Shown in pieces: positions 2,549 through 58,382 of a DNA stretch of 63,362 bases. Source of the stretch: a virus; the IMG/VR virus record IMGVR_UViG_3300045988_114118. One strand, 5' to 3'. The position numbers and the translations under genes are program-made. Each line of letters opens with the position of its first letter. Positions within the stretch are counted from its first letter, which is position 1. The notes beneath the pieces are model-generated. The model was not told the origin of the DNA and ran no database searches. It was given only the letters and a program-made list of their open reading frames with translations.

Positions 2549-2564
2549 TAACTATGGTCGATAT

Positions 2565-3508: not shown

Positions 3509-3513
3509 CGAAG

Positions 3514-3567: not shown

Positions 3568-3663
3568 AGATCTTTCCCCTTTTGTAGATTAAAAAAAAGG
3601 ATATAAAGTCCACTTTTGGACATAAAAGCTTATCCTTCGCGTATCCTAAAAAATTTAATCTAT

Positions 3664-6263: not shown

Positions 6264-6560
6264 TTATTCCGTGTCATCTTCGGATAAGTCTCTTAACTTA
6301 TCTTCCACGGAGTCTCTTTTCTTGTCCACTACAGCGTCTATATCCACGGATTGCAAGGATGGGACGATGTATTTGACTAGCTGGGTGAAAGCCGCTACCT
6401 TATCTTTTGGCTCCAGCTCCTCGAAGGCTTTCTTGATCTCTTCTCTGTTGGATGTCAACAGCTCCGAGATGAAAGTCCTTATCTCTCCCGTCTTCTTGTT
6501 TGGAGTGCCTTTGGCCCTTCCTCCTAGCCTTCCTCTCCCGTCGTTCTTTGGTCGTGCCAT
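6264..6560 (-). CDS. hypothetical protein with a basic N-terminal arm (possible DNA binding)
   Basis: MARPKNDGRGRLGGRAKGTPNKKT... then an acidic helical tail; function not established. Confidence 0.55.
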   Translation of the reverse strand: MARPKNDGRGRLGGRAKGTPNKKTGEIRTFISELLTSNREEIKKAFEELEPKDKVAAFTQLVKYIVPSLQSVDIDAVVDKKRDSVEDKLRDLSEDDTE

Positions 6561-6659: not shown

Positions 6660-7208
6660 ATGGGAATAATAGGTAGTGTAGTGGGTGGTCTGGCTGGCAT
6701 AGGTGGGGCCATAGGAGCCGGGATAGCCGGACGTAAGGCTTACAAGAAAAATATGGGGATACTGAATGACATGAGGCAGGATTCCCAAAATTGGTATGAC
6801 AGGGAGTATAACTCGGATTTCACCCAAAGGGCGGACGCTCAAGCCGCCCTTAACAACGCACGGCGAATCCTTGACGAGAGATACAGGAGGGCGGAGGGTG
6901 CCGCCGCCGTTGCGGGCGCATCCGATGAGTCCGTGGCCTTGCAGAAACAAGCGGCCAACGAGGTCTTGGGGGACGTGACTAGCGATATCGTAGGCCAAGC
7001 CGAGGCTTATAAGGAGGGTGTGCGTAACAATTATGTAAACCAGCAGACCGCATTCAACCAAGCGGAGATGGATTTAAACTCTAAAAAGGCGGCGAACGTA
7101 GCCACGCAAGCGGTGGGATTGGCTACGGCGGCTGGAGGTCTTGGAGACGCTTTTGGCGATGGCGTTTTAAGGAGCACAAAACTTGGTAAATGGGCGGGAG
7201 TGAAGTGA
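6660..7208 (+). CDS. glycine-zipper membrane protein (putative virion/ejection protein)
   Basis: MGIIGSVVGGLAGIGGAIGAGIAG N-terminus and a Gly/Ala-rich C-terminus; first gene of the operon that ends in the giant ORF. Confidence 0.6.
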   Translation: MGIIGSVVGGLAGIGGAIGAGIAGRKAYKKNMGILNDMRQDSQNWYDREYNSDFTQRADAQAALNNARRILDERYRRAEGAAAVAGASDESVALQKQAANEVLGDVTSDIVGQAEAYKEGVRNNYVNQQTAFNQAEMDLNSKKAANVATQAVGLATAAGGLGDAFGDGVLRSTKLGKWAGVK

Positions 7209-7209
7209 T

Positions 7210-8535
7210 ATGGCTGGAAGAATAGATTTAGTAGAGGAAGAGAGGAGGAGAAACGCACAAGCCGTGGCTCCTCAAGCTACGTCCGGTGCGAGCGTGCCGG
7301 CACAGGTACCTGTATCCCAGCCCGTGGCGCAACCACAGCCTCAAGTACAATCTCCGGCACCTGTTCCCGGTACGGTGGGAACGGCTATACCGGATGTGGG
7401 GACCGCCCCGTTGCAGGCCCCATCTTTAACGCAAGCGCCGGTGAAACCAGAGGCAGCCCCGTTGTCCATGTATGACAAGTTCGCGGATATGACAGCTGAG
7501 CAAGCCATTAACACGGGTGAGATAACCCCGCAAGGATATTGGAACATACAAAGCGAGGCGATCAAGGCGGGTAAGCGTGATCCTTACTCCACGGAGGAGA
7601 TTATCGAGATGATGCGTACGAGCGATCCCGAGTACGAGACGGGCGAGCAAAGGGCGAGACGTGAGAGGAACGACCGGGCGAGCCGTGCCATAACGGGGAT
7701 AAGCGACCTGATAAGCAACATAGCTGGAATGGTGGGGACGGCCAAGGGATCGAGTCCCGTGGTCGTGAACAATCTCGCTCCCCTTGACGCTAGGCAACGT
7801 GAGATAACGGAAAGGAGAAACGCCTTGAAGAGGAAATACGATACGTTGCTCACGAACGCCAAGATGGGTGAGATAGCCTATCAACGTGATCTGGAGTCGG
7901 CTAGGCAAAAGGCGCAGAGGGATTATCGTTTGAAGCTGGCCTTGAAGGATATTGACGCTAGGATAAGGAAGGGCGAGATCGATCAAAAGCAAGCTAACGC
8001 AATGACATTGGAGGCGTACAGGCAAGCGAACAGAATGGCTACGGAGCAATTCAAGGCAGAGAACCGATCCAAGGAAGAGGCGGCGAACCGAGCGAACCAG
8101 ATAAAGGTCGCTAACATAAGATCTGGTGGTTCTGGAGGAGCGAAGGATATTGTACTGTTTGGTCGAGATAATGAAGAGTTTCGTATACCTAGAGATAAGG
8201 TGGACGGATTTGTTACAGCGGCCTATCAAGCCATGAAGGATTTGATTGCTAAAAAAAATAAAGAAATTGAGCAAGACTCTTCCTTGACCAAGGAAGAAAA
8301 AGAGAATCTAAAATTATCAGATATAGATGATATTAAACTTGTGATGGGTGAGGGCGGTGATCAGATAAGCAAAGCGAGAGCGATAGTTGGTAGACGGCTA
8401 GCTGATTTCCCGGAACTGTATCCAATGCTGAAAGGCATGCTTGAGGATCGTTCTGATAGTTATAAGAATATCAATCTGAATGATGATGCAAAAGAAAGTG
8501 TAAACGAAAAATACAAGTGGATTCATGGACTCTAA
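7210..8535 (+). CDS. P/Q-rich, coiled-coil protein (putative virion internal protein)
   Basis: 441 aa; N-terminal PQ-rich low-complexity region, then charged heptad-like sequence; overlaps the next gene by 11 nt. Confidence 0.65.
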   Translation: MAGRIDLVEEERRRNAQAVAPQATSGASVPAQVPVSQPVAQPQPQVQSPAPVPGTVGTAIPDVGTAPLQAPSLTQAPVKPEAAPLSMYDKFADMTAEQAINTGEITPQGYWNIQSEAIKAGKRDPYSTEEIIEMMRTSDPEYETGEQRARRERNDRASRAITGISDLISNIAGMVGTAKGSSPVVVNNLAPLDARQREITERRNALKRKYDTLLTNAKMGEIAYQRDLESARQKAQRDYRLKLALKDIDARIRKGEIDQKQANAMTLEAYRQANRMATEQFKAENRSKEEAANRANQIKVANIRSGGSGGAKDIVLFGRDNEEFRIPRDKVDGFVTAAYQAMKDLIAKKNKEIEQDSSLTKEEKENLKLSDIDDIKLVMGEGGDQISKARAIVGRRLADFPELYPMLKGMLEDRSDSYKNINLNDDAKESVNEKYKWIHGL

Positions 8536-14500: not shown

Positions 14501-17500
14501 AAGGTATTTCATGAGTTAGGAGAAAAATTGCAACCGGATGCCAAAGGATATGACGACTACGGTCTATACAGGTTGGCGGAAGCGGCACGAAGCAAAGACC
14601 CTCAAAAATATATAAAGGAAGAATATGGGATAGATTTTTCTGATGAGGATGTGAAGACGCTGAATGAGATGGTGGATGCCATAAGGAATGAATATCCGGC
14701 AATGTACTTCGAGACTAAGTTTGAACGTCCTGTATATTTGGAGGAATTTGCTGCCGCTGTAGTCCCGGATAACGTAGATGGTGACATTCGTAAGGCGATA
14801 TACGATGCGGGTTTGAAAATATTCACTTATAAAGCCGATGATGAAATATCGAGAAATGAGGCAGTTAAGCAAGCCTCAGAAATTGATGGCGTTCGTTTTC
14901 GTTCTATAGGTGATAAAGGCGCTGATAATTTAAATAAGGCTGAAACTATTGAATCCTCAATCAACGATTGGTCTACCAAGCTTAACACCCCTGTCAGGGT
15001 AATCCATGACGTGGACGATATAAACGATACGGATGAGAATATGTTGGCCCGTAAGAGAGATTCCAAAGGCTGGTATGATACTTCTACCGGGGAGATAGTC
15101 ATAGTATCATCTAATTCCACGTCCGTAGGTGACGCTCAAAGGACTTTCCTCCATGAGGTGGTAGGGCATCATGGGTTACGTGAGCTATTCGGGGATGATT
15201 TCGATACTTTCCTTGATAACGTGTATCGGAACGCCAACGAGGATATCCGGAAAAATATCATTGACCGGACTAAAGGCAATCCTCTTAACTTGCGTGAGGC
15301 TACAGAGGAATACCTAGCGGAATTAGCGGAACGTGGTTTCGATAACAAGGTCGATCGTTCGTTATGGGAAAAGATCAAGGACGCTTTTCTTGATATGTTG
15401 AGAAAGGCAGGTATTAGCCTTGATTTCAAGTTATCGGATAATGACCTCCGTTATATTCTCTGGAGAAGCTATAAGAACTTGGAGCAAGGGAACTTGATGG
15501 ATGTGGCCGAGGATACGGTAATGAGGAATGATTTGGGTGTCGGGGATTTTTCTGTTCGGTTTAGGGAAGCGAAAACAGAGGTGGAGAATGAAGAACCTTT
15601 GAATAAGGAAATGGTTGACGCTTGGGATAAAGTGGCATCTTCAGACAGTTTTAAGTTCAAGGAGGCTATGGTTGATTCTTTAACAGCTATAGATGAGTTC
15701 TTGAAATTATTGGCCAAGAAAACCAAATCGAAGATACTGGATTACGAGAACCCATATTACGCTCTTATAGCCTTGTCTTCAAAGAATAAGGCAGATATGG
15801 ATAGTTTCGACTCTAAATTCCTGAATCCTTTGAATGAGGCTATAAGGGCATTGATAGGTGATGTCTCTGAGGTGTCCAAGAAAGGCTTAAGAAGAACTTG
15901 GGATTGGTCTAAAGGGCCATTAAGGGATTTGGTTAAATATGTACAATCTAAACACGGTATCGAGAGAAACCGTGATATGTCCGTAAGGGATGGCATAGAA
16001 ACTCTTAAGGCGTTTGACGTGGACGCTTTGTCTAAAATGGGGGTTATTTCCGAGTCTGATCTTAAAAACGCTAAAAAAACAGCGGAAAAGGTTGCGGAGG
16101 AAAAGGGGAGTGAGGCTTACAAAAAGACGTATGACAAGGTTCTTGGCAAGGAACTAAAGAAAGGTGTTGATAAAGGTAAGGCTGAGCGTTCTGCTGAGAT
16201 AGCCGCCGATTATCGGCAATCATTTGTCAAATCCGAGATCTATAACAAGGAGATGGATAAATATAAAGAAAAGGTGACCGGAACGTTGATTGATAGGTGG
16301 GAAGATTCAAAGAAAGATATCCTTAAGAAGGGTCTAGCGTGGGACGAGGAACAAAAGGAGTTGGATCGAGAGGCATTGTCATTCCAATGGAAGTTAGGCG
16401 ATAATTCTTATGGTGTGATTCTAGGAAAGGACTATAGTGGTTTGTCTTCAGTGTTTAAGCCTTCGGAGGATGGGGCGAATAAAGATAAATGGCTTTCTGA
16501 CGCTTATGATTTCGTGAGAGATTATGAGTCTACCCACAATATGGTTTTGGTCGATAATCTATGGGATAAGGTTCATAACGTGTCAGAGTATACGTTAAGG
16601 AGGCAGTATGAGTCCGGGCTGATAAGCAAGTCCTATATGGATAAGAACCTTTCCCGGTTTAAGTACTTTATCCCGTTGAGAGGTTTCTCCGATAATATTG
16701 CCTCCGATGTTTATGATTACATAGACGCTACGGAGATAAAGATGGGAAACCCAGTGAAGACCGCAAAAGGACGTATCTCTGAGGCTGATAATCCTTTTGC
16801 TGGTTTGATACACGTTGGATACGGATCTATTACCGCTGGAAATAGGAACTTGGCGAAACAACGTTTTCTCAATTTAGCTAGCAATCATGACACTGGCGGT
16901 CTTATTACCATAGATAATATCTGGGTTCGAAATGTCGGTACCGAGGAAAATCCGGAATGGGTGGAGTCCATTCCGCAAATACCGGATAACGCTTCTGGCG
17001 AGGAAGTGGCCAAGGCGGTGAAAGATCATGAGGAAATGATGAGAGAGCTTAGAGAGGAAGGTAAGGCTGAGCTGATTAAAGGAGGTCGATCGGATATACC
17101 ATATAAAACATTGTATGACCAGAGAAGCCAGCATCAGGTACAGGTTTTCGTGGGAGGTAACAGGTATGTCATGACCGTTAATGGCAATCCCCGATTGGCG
17201 CAAGCGGTAAATGGATTGACTAATCCGGATGTGAAGGATGATCTCGCTTACGTCGTAGCTAGGAACTTGAAAACATTTATGGCCGGAGCTTTTACGTCCA
17301 AGAACGTGGCGTTCTCGTTTGCCAACTTGATAAGAGATACGCCTTATGCCAATAACTCCGTGTTTGTGACGGAGAACTTTAGGTATTTCAAGGATTTTTC
17401 AGGGAACCAGAGGCGAGCGTTATTTGGACTTCGGAGTTTAGGTCGTAATCTGTATAAATACAAAAGGGGAGAGATCGATATTTCTGATAAGGAACAGGCA

Positions 17501-19072: not shown

Positions 19073-19705
19073 TTATTGAAATATATTACCAAGAAGCCCT
19101 AGCAAAAGAACAATTATTGATATGTAAGCAAATTCCTTTAAGGAGGTTTTTTGTCTAAATATCAACTTGAATAAGACTGCTAATGATGAAATAAAGAATG
19201 CTCCCAGTGTATATCCTAGAGGAGTGGATATTAAAAATATGTAATGACCTATGCTTTGTGGTTTTTCCTTGCTTATATCGTATAGATAAATTATTAAAAA
19301 TAGAATATATAGTATGATCCATTCCTTATTTTTCAAAAATGCCAACTTAGATGGTTTATCTGGTTCTGCTTTCTTTGAATTTACCTCATTTAAAATCGTA
19401 TAATGTTTAACCAGATCGCCTTCTGTATGTTTAAGATGATCTTTTATAAACATATCATTATTTCTATTATTATTTTCGCTTGGTGCCTGATCTGTCTTGT
19501 TCAACGATGCATCGTATTGATTTCTCTTTTCAGTGTCAGATAATGTCTCATACGCCTCTTTAATTATACGGAACATGCTATCGTCACTGATTCCTTTGTT
19601 GAAGTCGGGATGAAACTGGAATGATTTTTCTTTATACGCTTTTTGTATCTCTTCTAATGTAGCGTCTCTCTTAATTGATAGTATATCGTAGTAATTCATA
19701 GTCAT
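19073..19705 (-). CDS. J-domain (DnaJ-like) membrane protein
   Basis: YYDILSIKRDATLEEIQKAYKEKSFQFHPDFNKG carries the HPD motif; the C-terminal half has about 3 TM helices. Confidence 0.85.
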   Translation of the reverse strand: MTMNYYDILSIKRDATLEEIQKAYKEKSFQFHPDFNKGISDDSMFRIIKEAYETLSDTEKRNQYDASLNKTDQAPSENNNRNNDMFIKDHLKHTEGDLVKHYTILNEVNSKKAEPDKPSKLAFLKNKEWIILYILFLIIYLYDISKEKPQSIGHYIFLISTPLGYTLGAFFISSLAVLFKLIFRQKTSLKEFAYISIIVLLLGLLGNIFQ

Positions 19706-19875
19706 TCAAATTTATGAGTGCTTTGATCTAGGATGAGTGCTTTTTGGGATATCTTATCTACTAGAATGTATTCATTGACGCTTGAGTACCTTTGTGTCTG
19801 CACGTAATTCCATGCTATGAAAGCAAATATGAACATCAAAATCACCTTGAATATCCTGTATGTTTCCTCGCTCAT
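19702..19875 (-). CDS. 57-aa membrane protein translationally coupled to the J-domain gene
   Basis: hand-translated MSEETYRIFKVILMFIFAFIAWNYVQ...; ATGA overlap with the J-domain start. Confidence 0.45.
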   Translation of the reverse strand: MSEETYRIFKVILMFIFAFIAWNYVQTQRYSSVNEYILVDKISQKALILDQSTHKFE

Positions 19876-22712: not shown

Positions 22713-24647
22713 TTATAATTGTTGATTGATAGCGTCGATGCCTTGGCCGGCTATCATTTGTTGTTGCTGAGCGGCTAATTGTTCCTTCTGCGACTGGATC
22801 AATTGCAATAACTGATCGGCGAACGGGAAATTTCCCACCTCGAGCATTTGCTCGATAGATATCTGCTTGGCGTTCAGCAACTGCAATAGCAACTCGTTGG
22901 ATAACGCCCTGTATACCGGAGTGTCGTAGCTCTCTGATATGGATATGTCGAAATCCACGCCTCCCATGGTCTCCGGGTCCCATTGGACATAGCCGTTCCT
23001 TCCAACGATCCTTATTATTTTTTTATCGTCGTAGAATTGCTGGATGTTCTTGCACTTCTTGTACATGCCCGATATGATGAAGCTGGCGAACGATTCCAGC
23101 AAGTCCACGATGCTGTTGCTGGCGTTGGACGCTTGTTGCTGGTATAAGGCTCCGCTTGTCCCGCTCGTGGGCTGTTTCCCCTGCATGGCCCCTTGTACCC
23201 CGGATACGTCCTCCATCATGGACATCTGTAATTTTATCATGTCTCCCAACCCTGCCGGCACGCTCCGGTTCATCATCTGCTGGGGGACCTGTGCCCCCGA
23301 TTTGAGTTTCAGCTTGATCACGCCGTTGAACTTCGTCCACTCGTCCGCTATATCCTCTATGCTCATGTCATCGGGAACGGAGGCCTCGTCTACCACCAGC
23401 ACTCCCTTGGCGCTCGCTTTCGTCACGAAATCGTTCAGGATGATATAATGGTTGATATACCTTTGCTGGTCGATGATGTCGCTGACGAACGAGTGTATCT
23501 CCCCGTCAACGAAAGGATATGCCTTCATCGTGTAAGGGTGGCTCCCGTGGCTATAAGGGCTTTCTCCCTCGTCAAGTATATCCCCGAACGGTGAAAGATA
23601 ACGGTAGTACCAGTAGCTTTGTATCATGTACTCGTACTCTATGAGCGGGACCTCGCTCTCTGGCATGTATAGCGTGGGTTGTCCCAGCTCGTCCAGCACG
23701 TAATTCCCCAGATCGTCCTTGATCCTGTTATCCTCCAGCCGGCCCTCGTTCTCAGCGTCTATGTTCCCCTTGTTCGAGTAACTGTCCACGTAAGCGTCGC
23801 CCTTCAGCCAGTCGTGGCACCAGAACGCCTTTCTTCTCTCGAGCGTCCATAGTTCTATCACACGGCATAAGCGGGGGTCTTGCGGGGCCATAAACCCGTT
23901 AAGGTCATAGTTGTTGCCCTTGAACGTGTCGTTGAACTTGGCGATATAGTCCTTGTCACGGGCGTTCTTGTATATATCTTGCAGCCTTTCATAACCCCTG
24001 TCATCCTTGGCGAATACGCTGGCGAGTTGCCCGAAGGTCACGTCATGGATCTCTCCGATCATCTCGATGTCGGTATGTCTGGGGTCGTTCATGGGGCCAT
24101 CCACGAAGAACAGGTTCGGGTTGACGTTGTCAGTCCAGCATTCCCTTCGGTTCTCCCTTTGGGCGTAGGTCTCTTTCTGTATGGATAGGCCGCTTATGAG
24201 GAACTCCTCGAACATCCTTGCGTTCAGCTCCTTGATGTCGTTGATCTTGTTGTTGTACTCGAGCATGGTGCTCATGGTCTCTCCCAGCGTTTGCTCGTCA
24301 CGATCCCTCGCCACGCACACGGGTGTCTTATTCTGGTTCCGATAAACGCCGATGACGGTCCTTGCCAACCTTCGGATAAGGTTGTTGGTCATGGGGATAT
24401 TCCCCTGCATCCTTATATATTCCTCCTCCGGGATCATCCGGCCACAATACTCGATCAGGTCCCCCCATTGGTCGCCGTACATATATCTCTTGTTCCTGTC
24501 CCTCTCTTTCCTGAACTTGTCGAGCTTGTCCCATGCCCTAGCGCATTGGTATACCAATGGCATGTTCCGCCCGTCCGTCATGTTTCGTCTCTCGTATTTG
24601 ACGGTATCTATAGGTGATATCCTCGATTTAGGGATCAATCTAGTCAT
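22713..24647 (-). CDS. portal protein (by size and position)
   Basis: 644 aa, immediately downstream of TerL; Q-rich C-terminus. Confidence 0.6.
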   Translation of the reverse strand: MTRLIPKSRISPIDTVKYERRNMTDGRNMPLVYQCARAWDKLDKFRKERDRNKRYMYGDQWGDLIEYCGRMIPEEEYIRMQGNIPMTNNLIRRLARTVIGVYRNQNKTPVCVARDRDEQTLGETMSTMLEYNNKINDIKELNARMFEEFLISGLSIQKETYAQRENRRECWTDNVNPNLFFVDGPMNDPRHTDIEMIGEIHDVTFGQLASVFAKDDRGYERLQDIYKNARDKDYIAKFNDTFKGNNYDLNGFMAPQDPRLCRVIELWTLERRKAFWCHDWLKGDAYVDSYSNKGNIDAENEGRLEDNRIKDDLGNYVLDELGQPTLYMPESEVPLIEYEYMIQSYWYYRYLSPFGDILDEGESPYSHGSHPYTMKAYPFVDGEIHSFVSDIIDQQRYINHYIILNDFVTKASAKGVLVVDEASVPDDMSIEDIADEWTKFNGVIKLKLKSGAQVPQQMMNRSVPAGLGDMIKLQMSMMEDVSGVQGAMQGKQPTSGTSGALYQQQASNASNSIVDLLESFASFIISGMYKKCKNIQQFYDDKKIIRIVGRNGYVQWDPETMGGVDFDISISESYDTPVYRALSNELLLQLLNAKQISIEQMLEVGNFPFADQLLQLIQSQKEQLAAQQQQMIAGQGIDAINQQL

Positions 24648-24712: not shown

Positions 24713-26788
24713 TCATATGGTAGCCTCGCTGATAGGACCATGGGGCCTTACGCCGGGGGACTTATCCTTGGGGATGGACGGCAGATCCATGTCGCAATAA
24801 CATATATAAAGTCCTATAGCCCTAGTCATGACCTTGTCGTCGTGCTTGCCTTCCACGGCCCCGAACGATCCGTTGGCTTTCTTCTCGTACGTGGACATCT
24901 CATCCAGCGTGTCTATATCCCGCTCGATATATGACTGTTCTCGGAGGCATGCCACGAGATAGGATATGATCATTGGCTTGGTGTTCCGGTTCGTGTGGAA
25001 TCCCCATTCCGTCAGTTTTCCGGCCCGTATCTTGGCCTCGCTCGCCTTACGTGCGTACAGGTTGTCGTAAGCGTCCCCGATCTGGTTGAATATCAACTCG
25101 GACTGGTCTCCGTCCGTATCGTTGTCCTTGGTCTCTATGGTATTGCTCTCTATGACTAACAGGGCGTTCCCGAAAAACTTGGCGATCTGGGCGGATTTCC
25201 ATGCTAACAGGTCATGGTCTATGTGTCCGTGCCATTCGGCCACTACCTCCGGCTTCCCGCCAAACATCATCCAATAGCGGTCTATCACCAATATGTCCGA
25301 GAAATCGGATTTCTTTCCACGGCCCCCTATATCCACGATCACGAGGTAACGATTCTTGACGTTCGCTTGATCGTCTGGCAACGACCATACCTTGAGCGAC
25401 CCGTTATGATCCTCCTTGAATGACAGCTCTGTCAAGGCGCTCTTCCCTTTAACGGACTTGCCCGATATCTCCCCGACATACTTGGGTGGCTTGCATCCAT
25501 CCTTCAGCTTGTCTATATGATATACGCTGAATACCATATTGCCGGAGTTCTTGAACGCCTCCACGTCATCGCTGGGAAACTCCGCCGCCATGTCCGCGTG
25601 CTCCATGAAATCCTTCCGCTTGACTAAATACCAGTTTATAGCCTCGAAGGAAGCCCCCAGCTCCCATAGTCTCCAATAATATTTCCCGGGGTCTAGGCAT
25701 CCATCCGGCGGATTGTCGTTCTCCTTGTTGTCTAGAAGCCATTTGGCGAATATCCTCTTGTCCTTCACGGGTAGCTCGTACCTCTCGATCTTGAACCATG
25801 GGACGAATACGAACCTCCTGTTGCTTTTGCCTTTCTTGGCCGTGACGCATGACCGGTAGAAGAAATTCCCCATACCGTTAGCGGTGGATTCTATGACCTC
25901 TACGGTAAGTGGGGCCAATAGCAAGGATGATGATATGCTCCTTATTATATCCTCAGGGGTTTTCCCGTCCGTGTCATCCCATAATCCCACCTCGGAATAA
26001 TGTACGCAGCTCATGTCACCGCCTCGTCCCGAGTTTGGGCTGTTATAGGTACCTATGGTTATGACCGTGTCCCTCGCCTTCTCCACGTTACTACCTTTCC
26101 CGTACGTTATGATACTGTCCAATTGCGATCCCTCGTAAGGCGTGAATCCCAGCGTGACGTTATCCGGTAGGTCCAACAGCCATGTGGGGTATTTCTCCAG
26201 CATCTTGCTATACATGGCCTTGATCTTCCTTGACGTGGATGCGTCTTGAGCTACGATGGTGGAGTACCACGCCTCTTTATGGCATAGTTGTATCCACGCT
26301 ATATATAGCTGTACCAACGTGGAACCTCCCCATTGCCGGGCCTTTAGCAGGATGATCCTTATGGGTAGTCCCGCCAATCTCATATTCTCCATCACGGATA
26401 GCAGCAGGCGTTGTGGATAGTTGAGCTTGAAATGGATGTTCTTGCCTCCCTCCTTGTTCTTTATCTCGCAGAAAGAGTAAGCCCAGAAAGGGAAGTCATG
26501 CTTGTTCCTTACTTTTATGAACTGTCGTACGACCTTCTCATGAAGTTCCTCGTCATACCTCTTGAAGGTGACCTTGCAAAAGGCCCTTATGGATTTATAC
26601 CTTATTATTCTTTTAACTAGCTTGTTTGATAGCATGCTGACTGGCAGGAGCATCTTGTATGGGTACATGTCGGATATCTCGACCATCTCTCTTGTCCCGG
26701 GCGAGTTCTCTCCCTTGATAGGGTCGAAATGGGCGTGCATCTCGTCGTTCCTCCTGTTATTCTCCTCTACTAACCAATCTATAGTCAT
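24713..26788 (-). CDS. terL: terminase large subunit
   Basis: LLKARQWGGSTL (Walker A-like), CVHYSEVGLW (Walker B-like), ESTANG coupling motif, C-terminal nuclease-like HDDKV. Confidence 0.85.
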   Translation of the reverse strand: MTIDWLVEENNRRNDEMHAHFDPIKGENSPGTREMVEISDMYPYKMLLPVSMLSNKLVKRIIRYKSIRAFCKVTFKRYDEELHEKVVRQFIKVRNKHDFPFWAYSFCEIKNKEGGKNIHFKLNYPQRLLLSVMENMRLAGLPIRIILLKARQWGGSTLVQLYIAWIQLCHKEAWYSTIVAQDASTSRKIKAMYSKMLEKYPTWLLDLPDNVTLGFTPYEGSQLDSIITYGKGSNVEKARDTVITIGTYNSPNSGRGGDMSCVHYSEVGLWDDTDGKTPEDIIRSISSSLLLAPLTVEVIESTANGMGNFFYRSCVTAKKGKSNRRFVFVPWFKIERYELPVKDKRIFAKWLLDNKENDNPPDGCLDPGKYYWRLWELGASFEAINWYLVKRKDFMEHADMAAEFPSDDVEAFKNSGNMVFSVYHIDKLKDGCKPPKYVGEISGKSVKGKSALTELSFKEDHNGSLKVWSLPDDQANVKNRYLVIVDIGGRGKKSDFSDILVIDRYWMMFGGKPEVVAEWHGHIDHDLLAWKSAQIAKFFGNALLVIESNTIETKDNDTDGDQSELIFNQIGDAYDNLYARKASEAKIRAGKLTEWGFHTNRNTKPMIISYLVACLREQSYIERDIDTLDEMSTYEKKANGSFGAVEGKHDDKVMTRAIGLYICYCDMDLPSIPKDKSPGVRPHGPISEATI

Positions 26789-27224
26789 GATATAAATTAT
26801 ATAGCTTTATCCAGCAAAACCCAATCAGCGATGACGCTAGATGTATCTCCCAGCTTATGCCGGGAATGACGTATGATATGACAAGACTGCTCGCCCATAT
26901 CGCCCGGTCTCTCCATTTGGCCGAGGCTAGTCGCTCGCCCCACGTGGCGAATATCATGGCGCTCGCCCCGATGACGGGGGACGTGGAGAAGAACGAGGCG
27001 AGGACGGCCATGATATAGGACCGTGCGATCTCCCTCTTGCCAATTCGCATTACCTTCAGGGCGTATGAGTTCCCGATCAGATGCCATATGTTCACGTGGA
27101 AGAACATGTATGACAGCCTCGTCCAGAAGGGGTATGACGGCCCGGAGGCGAAACCTAGTGGGTCTAGCGGTAACACGTATATCAGAAACAGTGCCGCAAT
27201 CGTCGCATGGTTTGCTCGTAACAT
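26757..27224 (-). CDS. rhomboid-family intramembrane serine protease-like protein
   Basis: FHVNIWHLIGN (H-x4-H-x3-N), GASAMIF (GxSx), EIHLASSLIG (His helix); polytopic hydrophobic, 155 aa. Confidence 0.65.
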   Translation of the reverse strand: MLRANHATIAALFLIYVLPLDPLGFASGPSYPFWTRLSYMFFHVNIWHLIGNSYALKVMRIGKREIARSYIMAVLASFFSTSPVIGASAMIFATWGERLASAKWRDRAIWASSLVISYVIPGISWEIHLASSLIGFCWIKLYNLYHDYRLVSRGE

Positions 27225-27628
27225 TCCTTTCTCATTTTAGATATGATGGCCTTGGCGCTCTCTGGCGTAAGGACGAAACATGGGGCGGGACTCTCTATGA
27301 TGATGGATACGATATGCTTTATGGGCATCTTGGGGTGATCCGATCGGTACGAGACGAATTTCTCGAATAAGGACTTGTAGAACATCTTGGCGTTGTCCTT
27401 CATACCCTTTGGCATGGCTCCCTTGTTCATCTGGTATATGACGGACGAGGCCCTTTCCACGGATACCCAGTATCTGGAGGCTTGTGACGCTACGGTCTCG
27501 GCAAGTAGGTCCATATAGACAAGGTCCTTGTCTGATCTCATGTTCCTGTTCAAGGCTTCCCTGTACGCCCTAAGGAGGTCAAGGTTTCTTTCCCGCATCA
27601 TGGAGAATACGCTTCCGTTCTTCCTCAT
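27182..27628 (-). CDS. hypothetical protein, possible small terminase (position only)
   Basis: 148 aa, first gene of the packaging operon, upstream of the rhomboid-like gene and TerL. Confidence 0.45.
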   Translation of the reverse strand: MRKNGSVFSMMRERNLDLLRAYREALNRNMRSDKDLVYMDLLAETVASQASRYWVSVERASSVIYQMNKGAMPKGMKDNAKMFYKSLFEKFVSYRSDHPKMPIKHIVSIIIESPAPCFVLTPESAKAIISKMRKECYEQTMRRLRHCF

Positions 27629-27667
27629 ATCATACCTGTTTTTACCAAAGTTACGAATTTCGGCTTT

Positions 27668-27687
27668 GTCGGGTAAGATTTATCGTT
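27668..27687 (+). promoter_or_regulatory. 20-bp motif copy 2 (gtcgggtaagatttatcgtt)
   Basis: exact repeat of 21147-21166; followed 20 nt later by cATATTTGc; sits between the divergent packaging and head operons. Confidence 0.5.
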
Positions 27688-27744
27688 ATGGAGGCTTGTA
27701 TCGTTATCATATTTGCGTATAGAATAATTTTTAAAAAGCAACGT

Positions 27745-28539
27745 ATGCCAGAGAATGATATTGACAATAAGCCCGTTACGTCTAAAAGAGATATATTTTT
27801 GGAGAGTATTAGGGGACGTTATCCAGATTTGGACGTGGAGAACGAGGATGAGTTTTATGGAAGATTGAACGACGAATTTGATAGGTTTGATAGAGGTGAT
27901 AAAGCGCAGAGGGAACTAGGGGACTTGTTGGCCTCTGACCCTAGGAGCGCCGGCTTCTTGATGGTGATGCGCAAGGGCGGTAATCCCGTGGAATATCTTA
28001 TCGAGAATTACGGGGATGATTTTAAGGCCGCCTTGGAAAGCGAGGAGGGAAAGAACAAATTCTCAGAGGCTTTTTCCAAGTATATGGAGAGGCAGACGAG
28101 AGACAAGGAACTGCAAAAGCAGGCGGAGGATAACCTGAGATTGATGATCCAAGGTCTGGAGGAAGCCCAGTCGGAAGGTAAATTCAGTGACGAGGACGCT
28201 AGGGCGGCTTATGAGTTCCTTTACGCCGATGGAGGATTGTTGGATCGGATCGTGGTGAACGGTGTCACCAAGGATGATTGGATGATGCTGATGAAAGCGG
28301 CAAACTATGACAAGTCCATGATGGATGCGGCCAAACGTGAGGAGGAGGCCCGTAATGAGGGGGAGATAGCCGGACGTAACGCCAATATAGACATAAACAA
28401 GAGAAAGAGTACCAAGGTGGATCGGTTGCCGCCCGATCTGGGTTCCAGCGGGGGGATGACATCTCCCACGAAAAAGGAGAGAAACCCGACGATTGACAGA
28501 CTAGACAAGATCACGGGACGTAAGAGTGTTTGGCAATAA
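27745..28539 (+). CDS. scaffolding protein (putative)
   Basis: acidic, helical, directly precedes the capsid gene; ATG at 27745 preferred. Confidence 0.5.
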   Translation: MPENDIDNKPVTSKRDIFLESIRGRYPDLDVENEDEFYGRLNDEFDRFDRGDKAQRELGDLLASDPRSAGFLMVMRKGGNPVEYLIENYGDDFKAALESEEGKNKFSEAFSKYMERQTRDKELQKQAEDNLRLMIQGLEEAQSEGKFSDEDARAAYEFLYADGGLLDRIVVNGVTKDDWMMLMKAANYDKSMMDAAKREEEARNEGEIAGRNANIDINKRKSTKVDRLPPDLGSSGGMTSPTKKERNPTIDRLDKITGRKSVWQ

Positions 28540-28570: not shown

Positions 28571-30007
28571 ATGAGATCAAAGAGTTTTTTTAATTATTTG
28601 GGCGGCTTGGTATTGACCGTTTTGGCCGTGATGCTAGGAGCCACTACCGGATGCGGGATGTGTATGGCCGTACCGACAACCACGGATGGAGGGGGAGAGG
28701 TGACTGATGTTAACCCGGGGATTGCGGTTACGGATGCCAATGGCGGGGCGACTGCTACGGATGGCATTCAAATCTCGAAAGAAACGGATAATCTAGAGTA
28801 TTATGCGAAGGCTATAGACAAGCGTATCACGAAAATGAGACCGATGCGTACTCCTATAGACCAGATCACGAGGAGCGCAGAGAGTATTAGCAGGGTCAAC
28901 AGCATGGTCGTGAAATATTACAGTGTATCGACAAGACCCATCAAGGATTCCGTCAAGACCAATACGACCGAGATGGCATCAGGATCATCTTATGTAACCT
29001 TGCCTGTGAATGATGCTTCTCTCTTTAGCGTGACTGATACGATCCGGGTATCTGGGATCAAGGGCTATAAAGAGGATGGATCGACTCAGGATACGGTAAA
29101 GGACTTGATGCTTTATGTCGTGGGCAAGAGCGAGAACGAGGGATATCCGCAAGTGATTGCCGTGAACGGCAAACGAAATACGACAGGAGAGAATTCTATC
29201 GTTCCAGCCCTTGAAAAGAATGACGTGCTTATTCGTATGGGCCGTGCCGCAGGGGAATTGGACGTGGAGACCGGGCAGTTCTATTCATTGCCTACGCCAC
29301 AAGAACAATTTTGCCAGAGATTCATGATGCAGGTAGAGGAGTCCACGTATAATAAGATGTGGAGTAAGGAGGTTGACTGGAACTTTGACGATATGGAGGA
29401 GGACGCTATCTATGATATGCGTTTGGGTATGGAGAACTCATTCCTGTTCGGTATCAAGGGAAAGAGTAAGGATCCCAAGAAAACGGGAATGGATGTTTAT
29501 TTCACCGGTGGTATTTGGTGGATGGCAGGTCAGGACAAGTCTTTGGGAACCGTTGATGACTCGACCAATGAGATTGTGATCAAGGACGATGAGATGGTTG
29601 ATTTCTTGAAGGAGATCTTCACGGGTAATGATGCGGGGAACAAGACGAAGATCGCTTTCTGCGGATCTGATTTCTTGGCAGCCTTGGCCAAGATGAAGAG
29701 TGAGCGTTTCAAGGTCGTTAAGGAGTTCGAGAAGTGGGGGCTTAAATTTACCTCTTTCGATAGCAATTTCGGTAAGTTGCTGGCTATGCACCATGAGTTG
29801 CTTGATATGAACATGAAATCAGACGAGGCCTTTGTTATGGACCCCGAATACCTCCGTAAAAGGACTTTCGAGATGTTTAGCAGAAAGACTTATGACATGG
29901 AGAAATTAGCGAAACGTAAGACTAGTGCCGTGGTCTTGAATGAGGCCAGTTGCTGTTATCTGGTATATCCGAACGCCCACATCCGTGTTAAGTTAGGTTC
30001 TTTATAA
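28571..30007 (+). CDS. major capsid protein (putative)
   Basis: 478 aa after the scaffold gene and followed by a hairpin; the N-terminal 30 aa are unusually hydrophobic. Confidence 0.6.
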   Translation: MRSKSFFNYLGGLVLTVLAVMLGATTGCGMCMAVPTTTDGGGEVTDVNPGIAVTDANGGATATDGIQISKETDNLEYYAKAIDKRITKMRPMRTPIDQITRSAESISRVNSMVVKYYSVSTRPIKDSVKTNTTEMASGSSYVTLPVNDASLFSVTDTIRVSGIKGYKEDGSTQDTVKDLMLYVVGKSENEGYPQVIAVNGKRNTTGENSIVPALEKNDVLIRMGRAAGELDVETGQFYSLPTPQEQFCQRFMMQVEESTYNKMWSKEVDWNFDDMEEDAIYDMRLGMENSFLFGIKGKSKDPKKTGMDVYFTGGIWWMAGQDKSLGTVDDSTNEIVIKDDEMVDFLKEIFTGNDAGNKTKIAFCGSDFLAALAKMKSERFKVVKEFEKWGLKFTSFDSNFGKLLAMHHELLDMNMKSDEAFVMDPEYLRKRTFEMFSRKTYDMEKLAKRKTSAVVLNEASCCYLVYPNAHIRVKLGSL

Positions 30008-37497: not shown

Positions 37498-37506
37498 TTT
37501 ATAGAT

Positions 37507-38079
37507 ATGGACAGAGTATTACAAAGAAGAGATACGGCATCGAACTGGGCTAAGTTTAACCCTGTTCTTTCGGAAGGGGAGATAGGAATCGTCATCGACG
37601 AAGGTAAAGGCTATAAGATAGGTGACGGTGTCACACATTGGAACGATCTGGAATACCCCTCTAATCCAACCAGTGTTGTGGGCACGATCGGAGATAGCGA
37701 GGTTGCCGTGATTAACCAGAAAGGCGTATCCTCTTTGGTCGGCCTAGACACATACCCTGTCTTCTCCGATACCAAGCCCTACGTAAAAGGCGAGATCGTT
37801 AATTACGGAGGTCTCTTGTACGAGTTCACGGCTGATCATGAGGCGGGAGAATGGAATGAAGACGATAATGAGTCTATTTCTTTTAAAGAAATAATTAATG
37901 AGTCAATTAACATTATATTAAATCAAATCAACTTAATTAAAGGTAAAGGAACCTCATTAGAAAGACCTATTCTATCGGAACTAGATGATGGAGGTTTGTT
38001 TTACGATACCTCCGTGAAAAAGTATATCTGTTGGGATGGGACTAAATGGGTAAATATGGATGGATCAGAATTAAATTAA
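37507..38079 (+). CDS. tail fibre protein (shares its N-terminal domain with the 35521 gene)
   Basis: MDRVLQRRDTASNWAKFNPVLSEGEIGIVID..YKIGDGVTHWNDLEY. Confidence 0.6.
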   Translation: MDRVLQRRDTASNWAKFNPVLSEGEIGIVIDEGKGYKIGDGVTHWNDLEYPSNPTSVVGTIGDSEVAVINQKGVSSLVGLDTYPVFSDTKPYVKGEIVNYGGLLYEFTADHEAGEWNEDDNESISFKEIINESINIILNQINLIKGKGTSLERPILSELDDGGLFYDTSVKKYICWDGTKWVNMDGSELN

Positions 38080-38084
38080 AATAT

Positions 38085-38576
38085 ATGTACCGCTACCTCT
38101 CCTACATATCCGACCTAGCAAATTGGGCCAAGTCCATCGCCATAGCCGCCGTTGTCACGGCGATGGACTTCGTGTCACCGATAGAGAACTTCTTGGTGGT
38201 GATCCTGTCGCTGGCCTTCATCGATACGTTCTGGGGGCTGGCCGCGGATCACGGGGATTTTAGGAAAAGCAAGTTCATCCGTAGCTGGGTTTATATGCTT
38301 GTTTATTTCCTGATTATAATAATCTCGTTCTGGATAGGCGTGATGATGGATATATCGGAGGATAACGCCAAGGCTTTCGTGTCTTGGATCACGTGGGCGA
38401 TGATATGGTTTTACGGAACCAATGTCTTGAAGAATATGGGTAAGGTATTCCCGGATAACAAGGTGATAGCCTTCTTGTATTGGGTTGCCGCCGTAAAATT
38501 CATTAGTAAGGTCAACTTCTTGGATGAGTTCAATAAGACTAAGGATAAAAAAGGCTCCCCAGATCCAAAAGGATAG
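38085..38576 (+). CDS. holin-like membrane protein
   Basis: 3-4 TM helices, immediately upstream of the amidase; ATG at 38085 preferred. Confidence 0.5.
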   Translation: MYRYLSYISDLANWAKSIAIAAVVTAMDFVSPIENFLVVILSLAFIDTFWGLAADHGDFRKSKFIRSWVYMLVYFLIIIISFWIGVMMDISEDNAKAFVSWITWAMIWFYGTNVLKNMGKVFPDNKVIAFLYWVAAVKFISKVNFLDEFNKTKDKKGSPDPKG

Positions 38577-38674
38577 GGGAGCTGGATGTAAAAAACGCCT
38601 CTATCACGCCTGTCACAGGTTATGATAGAGGAACAAAGTTAACAAAGCGCATAAAAGTATAAAAAATAATTGAT

Positions 38675-39136
38675 ATGAGAACGATTAACAGGAAAATCAA
38701 CTTGATCGTGATCCATTGTTCGGCCACTAGGGTAGATAAGGATTATACCCCTGAGCAATTAGAGAGAGACCACAAGGCGAGAGGATTCAACTCCGCAGGT
38801 TATAACTATTATATCCGGAAGAGCGGGGAGATAGTATCTATGCGTCCATTGGAATTGATTCCGGCTCATGTGACCGGATATAACAAGAATAGTATAGGAA
38901 TATGCTATGAGGGTGGTCTTGATCCGGACGGGAATCCGGATGATACACGTACGGAGGCACAGAGACAGTCGATTATAAGGCTGTTGTTGGATTTGGTCGT
39001 ACAGTTCCCGGATAGTAGGATCTGCGGTCATCGTGACCTATCCCCGGATCTTAACGGTAACGGTAAGATTGAACCGGACGAGTGGATGAAGATGTGTCCG
39101 TGTTTTAATGCCGAGGAGGAGTATCGCAATATATGA
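38675..39136 (+). CDS. N-acetylmuramoyl-L-alanine amidase (endolysin)
   Basis: LIVIHCSAT...AGYNYYI...AHVTGYN..SIGICYEGG...CGHRDL is an Amidase_2/PGRP-type pattern. Confidence 0.9.
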   Translation: MRTINRKINLIVIHCSATRVDKDYTPEQLERDHKARGFNSAGYNYYIRKSGEIVSMRPLELIPAHVTGYNKNSIGICYEGGLDPDGNPDDTRTEAQRQSIIRLLLDLVVQFPDSRICGHRDLSPDLNGNGKIEPDEWMKMCPCFNAEEEYRNI

Positions 39137-39600
39137 AACCTTGGCAAGTAATATTAATACTAGTGTGCTTGGTAGCCAGTTTCACGGCTGGCTACCATAT
39201 CCGGGGGGATGTGACTGATAAAGTCGTGTCTAAATCCGATACCGTATTAATAACCGACACGATCCATGACAGTATCCCGTATCCTGTTTATGAGACACTG
39301 GTACAAACAATACCTGAGCCGTTCCCTGTTTATATCACGTTGGACGGTGACACGGTAAAGGAACCTGTATATGTTCCGGTACCCATAACCAGCAAGGAGT
39401 ACAAGACGGATGATTACCGGCTTTCAATTTCGGGTTACAAGCCTAATCTTGATTACATCGAGGTTTATAGAAGGACTGAGTATATAACCAAGACGATCAC
39501 CCCCCGTAGATGGGGAATAGGTGTTATTGCCGGTTATGGGATCGGGAAACATGGACTATCACCTTACGTTGGATTGGGTGGATTCTGCAGGATTTGGTGA
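39133..39600 (+). CDS. N-terminally anchored protein, possible spanin/lysis accessory
   Basis: MKPWQVILILVCLVASFTAG TM anchor; 4-nt overlap with the amidase. Confidence 0.4.
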   Translation: MKPWQVILILVCLVASFTAGYHIRGDVTDKVVSKSDTVLITDTIHDSIPYPVYETLVQTIPEPFPVYITLDGDTVKEPVYVPVPITSKEYKTDDYRLSISGYKPNLDYIEVYRRTEYITKTITPRRWGIGVIAGYGIGKHGLSPYVGLGGFCRIW

Positions 39601-50753: not shown

Positions 50754-50963
50754 TTAACTGATTGATCTTAATTTTCTTAACTCGCTATAAAGTAGATATA
50801 TTGTCCCGACATCATCCTTGAAAGTCTCGGAACGCTCCTCATTCACGGTCATGGAGTAATTAAACAGAAGGTCTATTAAAGCCTCGCATAACTCCTCCGG
50901 GGTAATGACCTTGGAAAAGAAATCATCGAGACCGGACAGATCAAAATGAATCTTGTCGGTCAT
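50754..50963 (-). CDS. hypothetical protein
   Basis: track ORF of 69 aa, 4-nt overlap with the upstream gene. Confidence 0.5.
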   Translation of the reverse strand: MTDKIHFDLSGLDDFFSKVITPEELCEALIDLLFNYSMTVNEERSETFKDDVGTIYLLYSELRKLRSIS

Positions 50964-51178
50964 GGCATACCTCCTTTCTCCATCCCTGCTAAAATGAATG
51001 CGGATATCAGTAAGATCAACGCCTTGACATAGCCTTTGGCATCGTCAACGCTTTCACACTCGCATATACCGAACGGTAATACGTTAAACACTCTGGCGAC
51101 ATTTCGCCACGAAAAGAACTTTCCGGCTCTTACGGACACGGGTACGGGCGTACCGGTGGCTTGAATCGTTTGCTTCAT
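50960..51178 (-). CDS. small C-terminally membrane-anchored protein, paralog of the 58152-58382 gene
   Basis: F.SWR..A....FG..EC....GYVKALILLISAFILAGMEKGG is shared with the 58152 gene. Confidence 0.55.
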   Translation of the reverse strand: MKQTIQATGTPVPVSVRAGKFFSWRNVARVFNVLPFGICECESVDDAKGYVKALILLISAFILAGMEKGGMP

Positions 51179-57897: not shown

Positions 57898-58155
57898 CTA
57901 TTTTATAGTCCTCTTGATCTCGTCCATCAACCTCTCTGTTATCCTCTTGTCGTGCCACTCGTGCCATTCGGTGAATAGCCCCTTGGCGGCAATGAAGAAG
58001 AAGCATGAGTTCTTTAGCTCCGTCTCTTGCGAAGACGTGATGCGTGCCCATTTTAGCTGGTTCTTCACGTGCTCCAGTTCCTTGGAAAGCATGTCGTTCT
58101 CCTTGGATAGGCGGTTGATGCGGATAGTTTGTTGACGTGCTGTTGGAGTACTCAT
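57898..58155 (-). CDS. hypothetical coiled-coil protein
   Basis: track ORF of 85 aa, 4-nt overlap with the upstream gene. Confidence 0.5.
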   Translation of the reverse strand: MSTPTARQQTIRINRLSKENDMLSKELEHVKNQLKWARITSSQETELKNSCFFFIAAKGLFTEWHEWHDKRITERLMDEIKRTIK

Positions 58156-58382
58156 AGCGCACCTCCTTCCAGCCCGGCTAAAATGAATGCGGACATCAAT
58201 AAGATTAGTACCTTGACATAGCCGATAACGTCGTTCTTGTTATCGCATTCGAGCAAGCCGAATGACATGAAGGTTAATAGCTTGGCGATGGATCGCCATG
58301 ATAGGAAGCTCGTTTCGTGAGCGGACGTGGTTGTGCAATTACTGTTGTTCGTTACACTCGCAATTTCATGTTCCTTGGTCAT
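58152..58382 (-). CDS. small C-terminally membrane-anchored protein, paralog of the 50960-51178 gene
   Basis: FLSWRSIAKLL..FGLLECDNKNDVIGYVKVLILLMSAFILAGLEGG; ATG at 58382 preferred. Confidence 0.55.
   Translation of the reverse strand: MTKEHEIASVTNNSNCTTTSAHETSFLSWRSIAKLLTFMSFGLLECDNKNDVIGYVKVLILLMSAFILAGLEGGAL

Follow-up and report, generated by a model that had tools for sequence, protein, structure and literature searches.

We report here that a stretch of viral DNA of 63,362 nucleotides (nt), IMG/VR virus record IMGVR_UViG_3300045988_114118, encodes a protein of 155 amino acids (aa) with the fold and the catalytic residues of the rhomboid intramembrane proteases. This stretch, analysed at its full length, is called the window below. 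As judged from its sequence and from a structural model, the protein is a minimal six-helix rhomboid serine protease and apparently an active one. Its gene overlaps both of its neighbours in the packaging operon and is conserved throughout a lineage of Bacteroidales phages. The major capsid proteins of the same lineage carry a signal-peptide-like leader, and removal of this leader is the role that we tentatively favour for the rhomboid.

The rhomboid gene and its product

The gene and the codons of its predicted active site are placed as follows (TM, transmembrane helix).

26757..27224, minus strand: mini-rhomboid gene, 155 aa (open reading frame, Pfam, PDB profile, AlphaFold and Foldseek)
27069..27098, minus strand: codons of H43 to N52, the H-x4-H-x3-N motif of TM2 (H145, H150 and N154 of GlpG)
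26961..26969, minus strand: codons of G86-A87-S88, the GxS motif with the predicted catalytic Ser at the start of TM4 (G199 and S201 of GlpG)
26841..26843, minus strand: codon of H128, the predicted catalytic His of TM6 (H254 of GlpG)

An earlier note on this DNA had proposed a 155-aa rhomboid at this place, with three hallmark motifs in a given order. Inspection of the open reading frame (ORF) and of its codons confirmed the gene and the order of the motifs, which are FHVNIWHLIGN (residues 42-52), GASAMIF (86-92) and EIHLASSLIG (126-135). On the raw sequence, positions 26961-26963 read gct on the plus strand, so that the S88 codon is AGC (Ser), and positions 26841-26843 read atg, so that the H128 codon is CAT (His). 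S131 and G135, which follow H128, occupy the positions of G257 and G261 of GlpG. A second ORF of 96 aa lies in another frame within the gene (26797..27087, minus strand). Among the metagenomic homologues, protein P0005 is a frameshifted hybrid of both frames and P0003 has an internal deletion; these two are probably assembly errors or defective copies.

The rhomboid fold, which the earlier note had also claimed, was found by several methods. The Pfam family PF01694 (Rhomboid) matched the protein (E=2.5e-5) with a score of 25.0 bits, its gathering threshold being 22.6, and a relative at about 30% identity scored 35 bits. A profile built from 61 members of the family matched 17 GlpG sequences in the PDB (best E=3.2e-9), and its alignment placed the GxS motif and the His on S201 (GLSG motif) and H254 of GlpG. 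When the single rhomboid sequence was compared with the PDB by phmmer, a spurious saporin match was the only one returned, and no PHROGs family covered the protein. The model that AlphaFold built from 34 sequences reached a mean predicted local distance difference test score (pLDDT) of 88.4 and a predicted template-modelling score (pTM) of 0.83. It consists of six long helices (2-17, 46-59, 63-77, 88-101, 104-119 and 125-152) and of short helices in the L1 loop. In this model S88 opens helix 88-101, and H128 lies near the start of helix 125-152. The first 35 Foldseek matches of the model in the PDB all belonged to the rhomboid family with a probability of 1.00: 34 were GlpG structures (TM-scores 0.58-0.72) and one, at rank 32, was an iRhom1 complex.

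Basic stretches were found in the loops at residues 57-69 and 97-107 and in the tail, and the N-terminus is basic in relatives. Applied to the sequence, the positive-inside rule thus predicts that both termini are cytoplasmic and that the active site faces the periplasm. The WR motif of the L1 loop is not kept: W34 aligns with W136 of GlpG but is followed by Thr, with the Arg displaced by one. At the Trp position, Trp was found in 36% of 148 cluster representatives of the family, and 91 distinct phage sequences had Trp in 23 cases and Tyr in 20. The WR motif is common, not universal, among rhomboids, and we treat its alteration as a subfamily difference and not as a reason to exclude the protein from the rhomboids.

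The phage protein thus resembles the GlpG proteins of E. coli and H. influenzae (MEROPS S54) in its six-helix core, its TM2 motif, its predicted N-in/C-in topology, the GxS motif that opens a short TM4 and the TM6 His followed by a small-residue packing motif. It differs from them in sequence (13-18% identity, with the TM-scores given above), in being about 25 residues shorter than the GlpG core, without a cytoplasmic domain, in an L1 loop cut to about 18 residues where W-T-R replaces WR, and in being encoded by a phage in synteny with morphogenesis genes. The full catalytic set is present, with a Ser and a His that align with those of GlpG and are 99-100% conserved. We are highly confident, from sequence and model, that the product is an active rhomboid.

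The only NCBIfam model that touched the protein was that of rhombosortase (TIGR03902, model length 154). It gave 17.6 bits with the window protein and 15.5-27.1 bits with three relatives, against a cut-off of 84, and identity with rhombosortase was rejected on these scores (15-27 bits).

Over 9 kb the window shares 98.9% identity with Bacteroides phage BF1-TP2 (PQ571263; from sewage in China, with B. fragilis BL19 as host), and the rhomboid identity as such is not a new finding, since public records already give it. GenBank annotates gp59 of BF1-TP2 as 'rhomboid family intramembrane serine protease' and gp8 of phage BS-TP4 as 'rhomboid domain-containing protein', and UniProt A0A8S5TE03, 99% identical (BFVD), is named 'Protein glpG-like protein [Podoviridae sp. 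ctzXp5]'. The bare finding of a rhomboid in the packaging module is therefore annotated already. The rhomboid of phage BKO1-TP3, gp50, is labelled 'glycoside hydrolase' in GenBank.

The literature that we searched contained no paper about these phages and none about morphogenesis involving a phage rhomboid; it mentioned phage rhomboids only in Stenotrophomonas phages DLP3 and DLP5, whose gp93 is a 175-aa rhomboid-superfamily protein of unknown function (PMC7326821). Unlike the window rhomboid in its packaging operon, gp93 lies among non-structural genes near predicted polysaccharide-modification genes (PMC7326821), and it was not returned by a tblastn search of phage genomes with the window rhomboid. 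We did not find described elsewhere the strict conservation of a minimal phage clade, its fixed pairing with a phrog_27246 protein, or the leader on every capsid protein of the lineage that we examined.

Packaging neighbourhood and conservation

The genes around the rhomboid on the same strand are the following.

27182..27628, minus strand: 148-aa protein, soluble, basic and all-helical, phrog_27246, upstream of the rhomboid
24713..26788, minus strand: large terminase TerL, 691 aa (PHROG terminase matches)
22713..24647, minus strand: portal protein of the P22 type, after TerL (Pfam P22_portal E=1.3e-40; phrog_156)
27646..27653, minus strand: candidate Bacteroides-type -7 promoter motif TAnnTTTG, 18-25 nt upstream of the ATG of the 148-aa gene

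The rhomboid ORF overlaps the 148-aa ORF by 43 nt and TerL by 32 nt, as the earlier note had indicated. The second figure holds if TerL starts at 26788, a start that we adopted on account of an N-terminal sequence, MTI[ED].LV.EN.RR, that relatives have conserved; the start of BF1-TP2 TerL in GenBank is 16 codons later. These overlaps suggest that the rhomboid may be co-translated with packaging genes. The -7 motif sits in the intergenic region shared with the divergent scaffold/capsid operon. It is weak evidence, with one match within 27600-27760 and a background of 0.79 per kb on both strands. TerL is 26-27% identical to the annotated TerL of Stx, Vibrio and Salmonella phages; in GenBank, the TerL proteins of BF1-TP2 (gp60), BS-TP4 (gp7) and BKO1-TP3 (gp51) are mislabelled 'tail spike protein'.

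The 148-aa protein matched phrog_27246 (E=3e-27), for which PHROG gives an unknown function, and it has two conserved motifs, SRYWVS.ERA and PAPCF. Neither Pfam nor NCBIfam nor the PDB gave a match for it, and a similarity to any small terminase (TerS) could not be detected. Its family profile returned only noise from the PDB, and its single-sequence AlphaFold model (pLDDT 48.6) was unusable. The gene was on the strand of the rhomboid in 168 loci, and the median overlap of the two open frames was about 52 nt. TerL directly follows the rhomboid in 127 of 151 loci. In the other 24 it lies 2.5-5 kb off, often on the other strand, and the 148-aa gene and the rhomboid are still joined and overlapping. 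That these two genes stay paired when TerL moves indicates that it is the phrog_27246 protein, and not TerL, that invariably accompanies the rhomboid. The placement of the rhomboid in the head and packaging module thus holds for this phage and for most loci, but not where TerL is apart. The label 'TerS-like', which the earlier note had given to the 148-aa gene from its position alone, is not supported: besides lacking any detectable similarity to TerS, this gene is not immediately upstream of TerL in the 24 loci just described.

In the sublineage with a separated TerL, the rhomboid is about 10.6 kb from the capsid gene, and a different ORF of 131 aa, acidic and helical, precedes or overlaps the TerL start (10487-10882, minus strand, in locus L156; 4501-4896, plus strand, in locus L106). 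This ORF could be the real small terminase of that sublineage. It weakly matches a 98-aa ORF of the window (6264..6560, minus strand; phmmer E=3e-4), which is labelled DUF5681 in the GenBank record of BF1-TP2.

We then examined how far the rhomboid is conserved. An exhaustive HMMER search recovered 356 clusters (50% identity) at E<=1e-3, nearly all of 140-175 aa. Residue conservation was measured on the 148 cluster representatives, which share <=50% identity: H48, N52, G86 and S88 were present in 100%, H43 and H128 in 99% and G135 in 85%. Among distinct phage sequences, with identities down to 18%, H43, H48 and N52 were found in 91 of 91; where the sequences could be aligned, G86 and S88 were found in 89 of 89 and H128 in 84 of 84. 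Homologues at 86%, 55% and 25-35% identity kept the length, the motifs and the synteny. All seven homologues whose context was looked up (25-55% identity) had the 148-aa gene, the rhomboid and TerL in this order, with scaffold and SU10-type capsid genes divergent where the contig reached that far and, on longer contigs, genes for giant polyvalent proteins nearby. The cultured phages BS-TP4 and BKO1-TP3 have the arrangement of the window.

A degenerate DNA motif for F.HAN.FHL..N was scanned in IMG/VR, where it gave 120 loci, and in cellular genomes. A mini-rhomboid match was present in 178 of the 179 loci analysed, these 120 included, and the loci with enough flanking sequence also held the 148-aa gene and TerL. 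In cellular genomes the motif mostly detected ordinary rhomboids of 200-590 aa (20-60 bits), without phage neighbours. It also detected 12 mini-rhomboids (62-163 bits), all beside phage genes. Ten of the 12 were in Bacteroidales assemblies (Parabacteroides, Proteiniphilum, Butyricimonas, Bacteroidaceae, Alistipes, Cryptobacteroides twice, Segatella, Paludibacter and an unclassified Bacteroidales metagenome-assembled genome); the other two were labelled Saccharibacteria and Kiritimatiellia, labels that may be binning errors. The guanine-plus-cytosine content of the rhomboid gene (0.515) is close to that of TerL (0.502), for a window mean of 0.428. The sequences thus point to a phage-specific clade of minimal, strictly conserved proteins of about 140-175 aa, and the mini-rhomboid is almost certainly a core phage gene and not cargo. 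The lineage that carries it consists of temperate Bacteroidales phages with SU10-type capsids, P22-type portals and giant polyvalent proteins. The element in the window is itself a temperate phage or prophage, as indicated by the region 2520-4911 (plus strand), where a CI-like repressor that has a Peptidase_S24 domain is encoded together with a tyrosine integrase that has an Arm DNA-binding domain; this fits the occurrence of mini-rhomboid loci inside Bacteroidales assemblies.

The capsid leader and a possible role of the rhomboid

In the window, the rhomboid and capsid operons diverge from one intergenic region of 60-115 nt. The capsid side comprises the following features.

28571..30007, plus strand: major capsid protein of the SU10 type (DUF5309), 478 aa (SU10_MCP E=1.9e-33; phrog_26635 E=3e-142)
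28571..28669, plus strand: capsid leader, residues 1-33, MRSKSFFNYLGGLVLTVLAVMLGATTGCGMCMA, candidate rhomboid substrate
28670..28798, plus strand: acidic linker rich in Gly, Thr and Asp, capsid residues 34-76, between the leader and the conserved HK97-fold body
27745..28539, plus strand: scaffold-like protein, probably 264 aa from Met20 of a 283-aa ORF, phrog_22323, divergent from the rhomboid operon

The scaffold probably starts at 27745, because in relatives the protein begins at the position of Met20 and lacks the hydrophobic stretch encoded by codons 1-19 of the ORF (27688-27744, plus strand; MEACIVIIFAYRIIFKKQR); the GenBank record of BF1-TP2 keeps the long form.

The Pfam SU10_MCP match begins only at residue 80 of the capsid protein. 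Ahead of it, the leader has a basic start, a hydrophobic core and a small-residue end that contains Gly and often reads G-G-x-x-M-A. Despite widely differing sequences, this design was found in 49 of 49 distinct capsid N-termini from rhomboid-bearing loci. The net charge of the start is +1 to +5, the end is mostly x-M-A (AMA, CMA, MMA or IMA), and the Met before Ala is conserved in 42 of the 49. Beyond the leader, the next 40 residues carry a median net charge of -6, with small or acidic residues making up 62-85% across the lineage. The design was also present in 118 of 120 database capsid homologues. A second scan, seeded with the most divergent capsid clade, gave 78 loci, all with the leader. 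The rhomboid was found on 68 of these contigs, within 10 kb of the capsid gene on 23 and elsewhere on 45; the other 10 contigs are short or incompletely covered, so that no contig was shown to be without it.

The leader exists and is translated, as indicated by three properties of the sequence: its frame stays open, substitutions by codon position number 260/158/397, and the 25 nt upstream have an AT content of 0.79 at the leader ATG, against 0.38 at the internal Met. Start sites in Bacteroidales are AT-rich and without Shine-Dalgarno sequences. The conserved Met-Ala was considered as the true start, with an untranslated leader, and was rejected as the main reading on the open upstream frame, the retained charge and hydrophobicity and the third-position bias; the AT-rich sequence upstream of the leader and clade L176, without Met at this place, count further against it. 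The conserved Met could still be a minor internal start. One leaderless capsid cluster, P0310, was traced to the start chosen by the gene caller, the leader being in frame upstream. A lipoprotein signal was rejected as a general explanation, Cys not being conserved (for example TGVSMS in locus L023).

Such a leader on a cytoplasmic capsid protein is a puzzle in itself. Phage SU10 has a 352-aa capsid protein without a leader, and its structural region has no rhomboid. In a tblastn search, the capsid protein of the window detected three Bacteroides phages alone, all of which carry the rhomboid, and among the matches listed in the protein search there were only capsid proteins of the lineage. Outside the lineage, MW202692 is the nearest relative by TerL; it carries no rhomboid, and its capsid protein is too distant to inform. 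The presence of the leader in every capsid protein of the lineage that was examined, and its absence from SU10, speak for a link between capsid and rhomboid at the sequence level.

A Pfam scan of the structural-region genes detected no prohead-protease domain (S78/U35, S49/ClpP type or T4 gp21), and the only other peptidase domain found in the window scan was the S24 domain of the CI-like repressor. The earlier note had remarked on the lack of a canonical prohead protease; this holds for the genes scanned, but is not odd in itself. Heads of the P22 type mature without a prohead protease, and the annotation of phage SU10, after which this capsid family is named, lists a scaffold and a head protein but no protease.

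A membrane-seeking leader must go from a protein that builds a closed shell, and the rhomboid is the sole protease found in the morphogenesis region. From these two points we favour the view that the rhomboid removes the capsid leader, while giving it somewhat less than an even chance. Among the roles suggested by the earlier note, virion maturation at the membrane is supported indirectly by the leader, which the capsid protein of every relative examined carries. The rhomboid would be expressed late from the operon that it shares with the 148-aa protein and, in the majority of members, also with TerL. The capsid protein would be made as a precursor consisting of the leader, an acidic flexible linker of 40-100 aa and the capsid domain, and the leader would take it to the inner membrane. 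Like a signal peptide when translocation begins, the leader would enter the membrane together with the linker in the form of a loop. The length of the linker would allow the small-residue site to come up to the outer leaflet without the folded capsid domain leaving the cytoplasm. Cleavage by the rhomboid at this site would allow the linker to slide back, which would give the linker a purpose, and the freed capsid protein would assemble with scaffold and portal. The complete scheme, in which the rhomboid is the capsid-maturation protease of the lineage, intramembrane leader cleavage frees a membrane-targeted precursor and the 148-aa protein possibly acts as a cytoplasmic adaptor, is more doubtful than leader removal as such.

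Three known systems help to place capsid leader removal by the rhomboid. The prohead proteases (HK97 gp4 of the S78/U35 type, ClpP/S49, T4 gp21) would have the same job, the removal of a capsid N-terminus by a protease of the head and packaging module. The phage rhomboid is unrelated to them in sequence and fold; they are soluble, become packaged inside the prohead and cut after shell assembly, whereas a membrane protease would act before or during assembly. AarA of Providencia stuartii, a rhomboid with seven helices, removes 8 N-terminal residues from TatA, whose N-terminus is outside, by a cut at …IATA|A…. Shared features would be the removal of a short N-terminal piece, a single dedicated substrate and a small-residue cut resembling the …AMA| of the capsid leader; in contrast to TatA, the capsid leader is predicted to be N-in, and about 33 residues including the whole hydrophobic helix would go. 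In the rhombosortase/GlyGly-CTERM system, which Haft and Varghese are said to have described in 2011, a small rhomboid reportedly serves partners that carry a signal made of Gly-Gly, a hydrophobic helix and a basic cluster. Many capsid leaders likewise carry G-G just before the small-residue site, but the putative phage signal is N-terminal and in reversed order (basic, hydrophobic, GG), and its bearer is a cytoplasmic capsid protein instead of a secreted enzyme. Among the named subfamilies rhombosortase is still the nearest one, and it is also the closest functional analogy.

Several points weigh against leader removal by the rhomboid. The looped topology is pure inference, and membrane insertion of the leader and its cleavage by the rhomboid are likewise inferred. 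By the positive-inside rule the N-terminus of the leader should be inside, in a Sec-like manner, which would imply either export of the capsid protein or a looped intermediate; known bacterial rhomboid substrates such as TatA have their N-terminus outside. In many clades the small-residue motif would suit host signal peptidase I about equally well, and the Met before Ala, given its conservation, could mark a second internal start. Leader and rhomboid co-occur through one lineage, so that shared ancestry explains the correlation equally well, and the sole negative control, SU10, is distant. The rhomboid lies outside the head module both in 24 of 151 loci and in the large clade that has it about 10.6 kb from the capsid gene. 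Finally, a study of Porphyromonas phages reported capsid proteins with predicted signal peptides, left unexplained, in the presence of prohead proteases (PMC10367356), and such leaders therefore need no rhomboid.

The rhomboid could instead act on envelope proteins of the host, in late membrane remodelling, in a block of superinfection or in tuning a host pathway as AarA does with TatA in Providencia. Cellular rhomboids typically act on membrane proteins of the host, and other phages carry rhomboids among membrane-modifying accessory genes, for example gp93 of DLP3 and DLP5 (PMC7326821). Accessory genes are, however, normally patchy and at variable sites, whereas this rhomboid is fixed and overlaps its neighbours. 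It is moreover kept down to about 20% identity across Bacteroides, Alistipes, Segatella and Parabacteroides hosts, which would call for a single conserved target in all these genera. We consider a host target unlikely.

An active rhomboid might also cut another membrane protein of the phage, for which a hydropathy scan provided the following candidates.

6660..7208, plus strand: candidate substrate, N-terminal glycine-zipper protein, 182 aa, MGIIGSVVGGLAGIGGAIGAGIAG, ahead of the giant polyvalent protein
38046..38576, plus strand: candidate substrate, two-helix holin-like protein, 176 aa
39133..39600, plus strand: candidate substrate, N-terminally anchored DUF6808 protein
19073..19705, minus strand: candidate substrate, membrane-anchored DnaJ protein
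50960..51178 and 58152..58382, minus strand: candidate substrates, two small tail-anchored paralogues

In the glycine-zipper protein, basic residues right after the hydrophobic segment predict an N-out/C-in orientation like that of TatA, and the segment is Gly-rich, hence helix-destabilising, and conserved in BKO1-TP3. On the other hand, it is only marginally hydrophobic (Kyte-Doolittle 1.67), and in BKO1-TP3 it is shorter and interrupted by Lys. The genes of all these candidates are unlinked to the rhomboid, and a role in lysis would place the rhomboid in the lysis cassette and not in the terminase operon. Cleavage of one of these proteins therefore seems distinctly unlikely to us.

A division of labour may also be imagined, in which host signal peptidase cuts the leader and the rhomboid clears leftover leader peptides or precursors stalled in the translocon, in the manner of a signal-peptide peptidase. 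Many leaders end in A-x-A-like sequences (AMA, CMA, ATA) that suit signal peptidase I, and with hundreds of capsid copies per particle leader peptides would accumulate. Several clades, however, have Met, Phe, Leu or Ile at -3 (GVMMA, GVFMA, AIMA), which breaks the -3/-1 rule of this enzyme; the hosts already own enzymes that degrade signal peptides, and the paradox of capsid export would stay. The chance of such a clearing function appears small.

Smaller still is the chance that the rhomboid is non-proteolytic and serves to anchor its 148-aa partner, the terminase or the portal to the membrane or to organise them there, like gp40 in the initiation of T4 heads. Such a role would fit the invariable coupling of the rhomboid to a soluble 148-aa protein, and the pseudoproteases iRhom and Derlin are well-known scaffolds, with the iRhom1 complex among the fold matches. 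Pseudoproteases, however, lose their catalytic residues. Here the Ser and the His are both present and, with the two His and the Asn of TM2, essentially invariant; this indicates selection on catalysis and argues against a pseudoprotease.

That the ORF is not a real gene and its motifs are due to chance, as the alternative-frame ORF and the hybrid P0005 might suggest, is refuted by the length, motifs and synteny that homologues sharing 86%, 55% and 25-35% identity have kept, and further by the Pfam, PDB and fold matches; it has practically no probability left.

Other genes of the phage and significance

The giant polyvalent protein of the window (3498 aa; 8525-19021, plus strand) contains InPase, ART-PolyVal, PBECR5 nuclease and LPD38 domains, and the versions in relatives (3300-5200 aa) have MuF_C and DarB-like helicase domains. 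Its probable role is that of an anti-defence protein that is packaged and injected. It is preceded by the gene of a 441-aa protein (7210-8535, plus strand) and, before it, by the glycine-zipper gene, which is conserved as gp57 of BKO1-TP3 and split by the genome ends in BS-TP4. The glycine-zipper protein may be an ejection or membrane-insertion protein. The J-domain (DnaJ) protein (19073-19705, minus strand) has three predicted C-terminal membrane helices, and its gene is preceded by that of a 57-aa single-helix membrane protein (19702-19875, minus strand). A membrane-anchored DnaJ is a second hint that late functions may be organised at the membrane.

The two tail-anchored paralogues, of 72 and 76 aa (50960-51178 and 58152-58382, minus strand), have a C-terminal hydrophobic helix, …GYVK.LILL.SAFILAG…, and end in GG, without the basic tail of a GlyGly-CTERM signal; this was seen in the hydropathy scan, no systematic GlyGly-CTERM scan having been run. 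The lysis cassette (38046-39600, plus strand) consists of the holin-like 176-aa protein, an Amidase_2 endolysin (38675..39136) and the DUF6808 protein (39133..39600), which, with its N-terminal membrane anchor, is possibly a spanin. Two adjacent tail-fibre-like proteins (35521-38079, plus strand) begin with Mtd_N, a domain that forms the N-terminus of the major tropism determinant of the Bordetella phage, and one of them also has a CBM_5_12 carbohydrate-binding module.

Bacterial rhomboids are widespread and, to our knowledge, very few of their natural substrates have been identified. A rhomboid with one obvious candidate substrate would thus provide a tractable enzyme-substrate pair in phages that can be cultivated, namely BF1-TP2 on Bacteroides fragilis, BS-TP4 on B. 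salyersiae and BKO1-TP3 on B. koreensis. With about 155 aa the enzyme is also near the minimum size for the rhomboid fold. Even if the capsid link proves wrong, no better-conserved phage rhomboid is known, and the question of its target would keep its interest. The leaders themselves raise the question of why abundant gut-phage capsids carry signal-peptide-like sequences, and whether head assembly begins at the membrane. If the capsid link is true, the rhomboid would be the first intramembrane protease shown in the morphogenesis of a tailed phage and, together with its capsid protein, would be a new case of one rhomboid matched to one N-terminal sorting signal.

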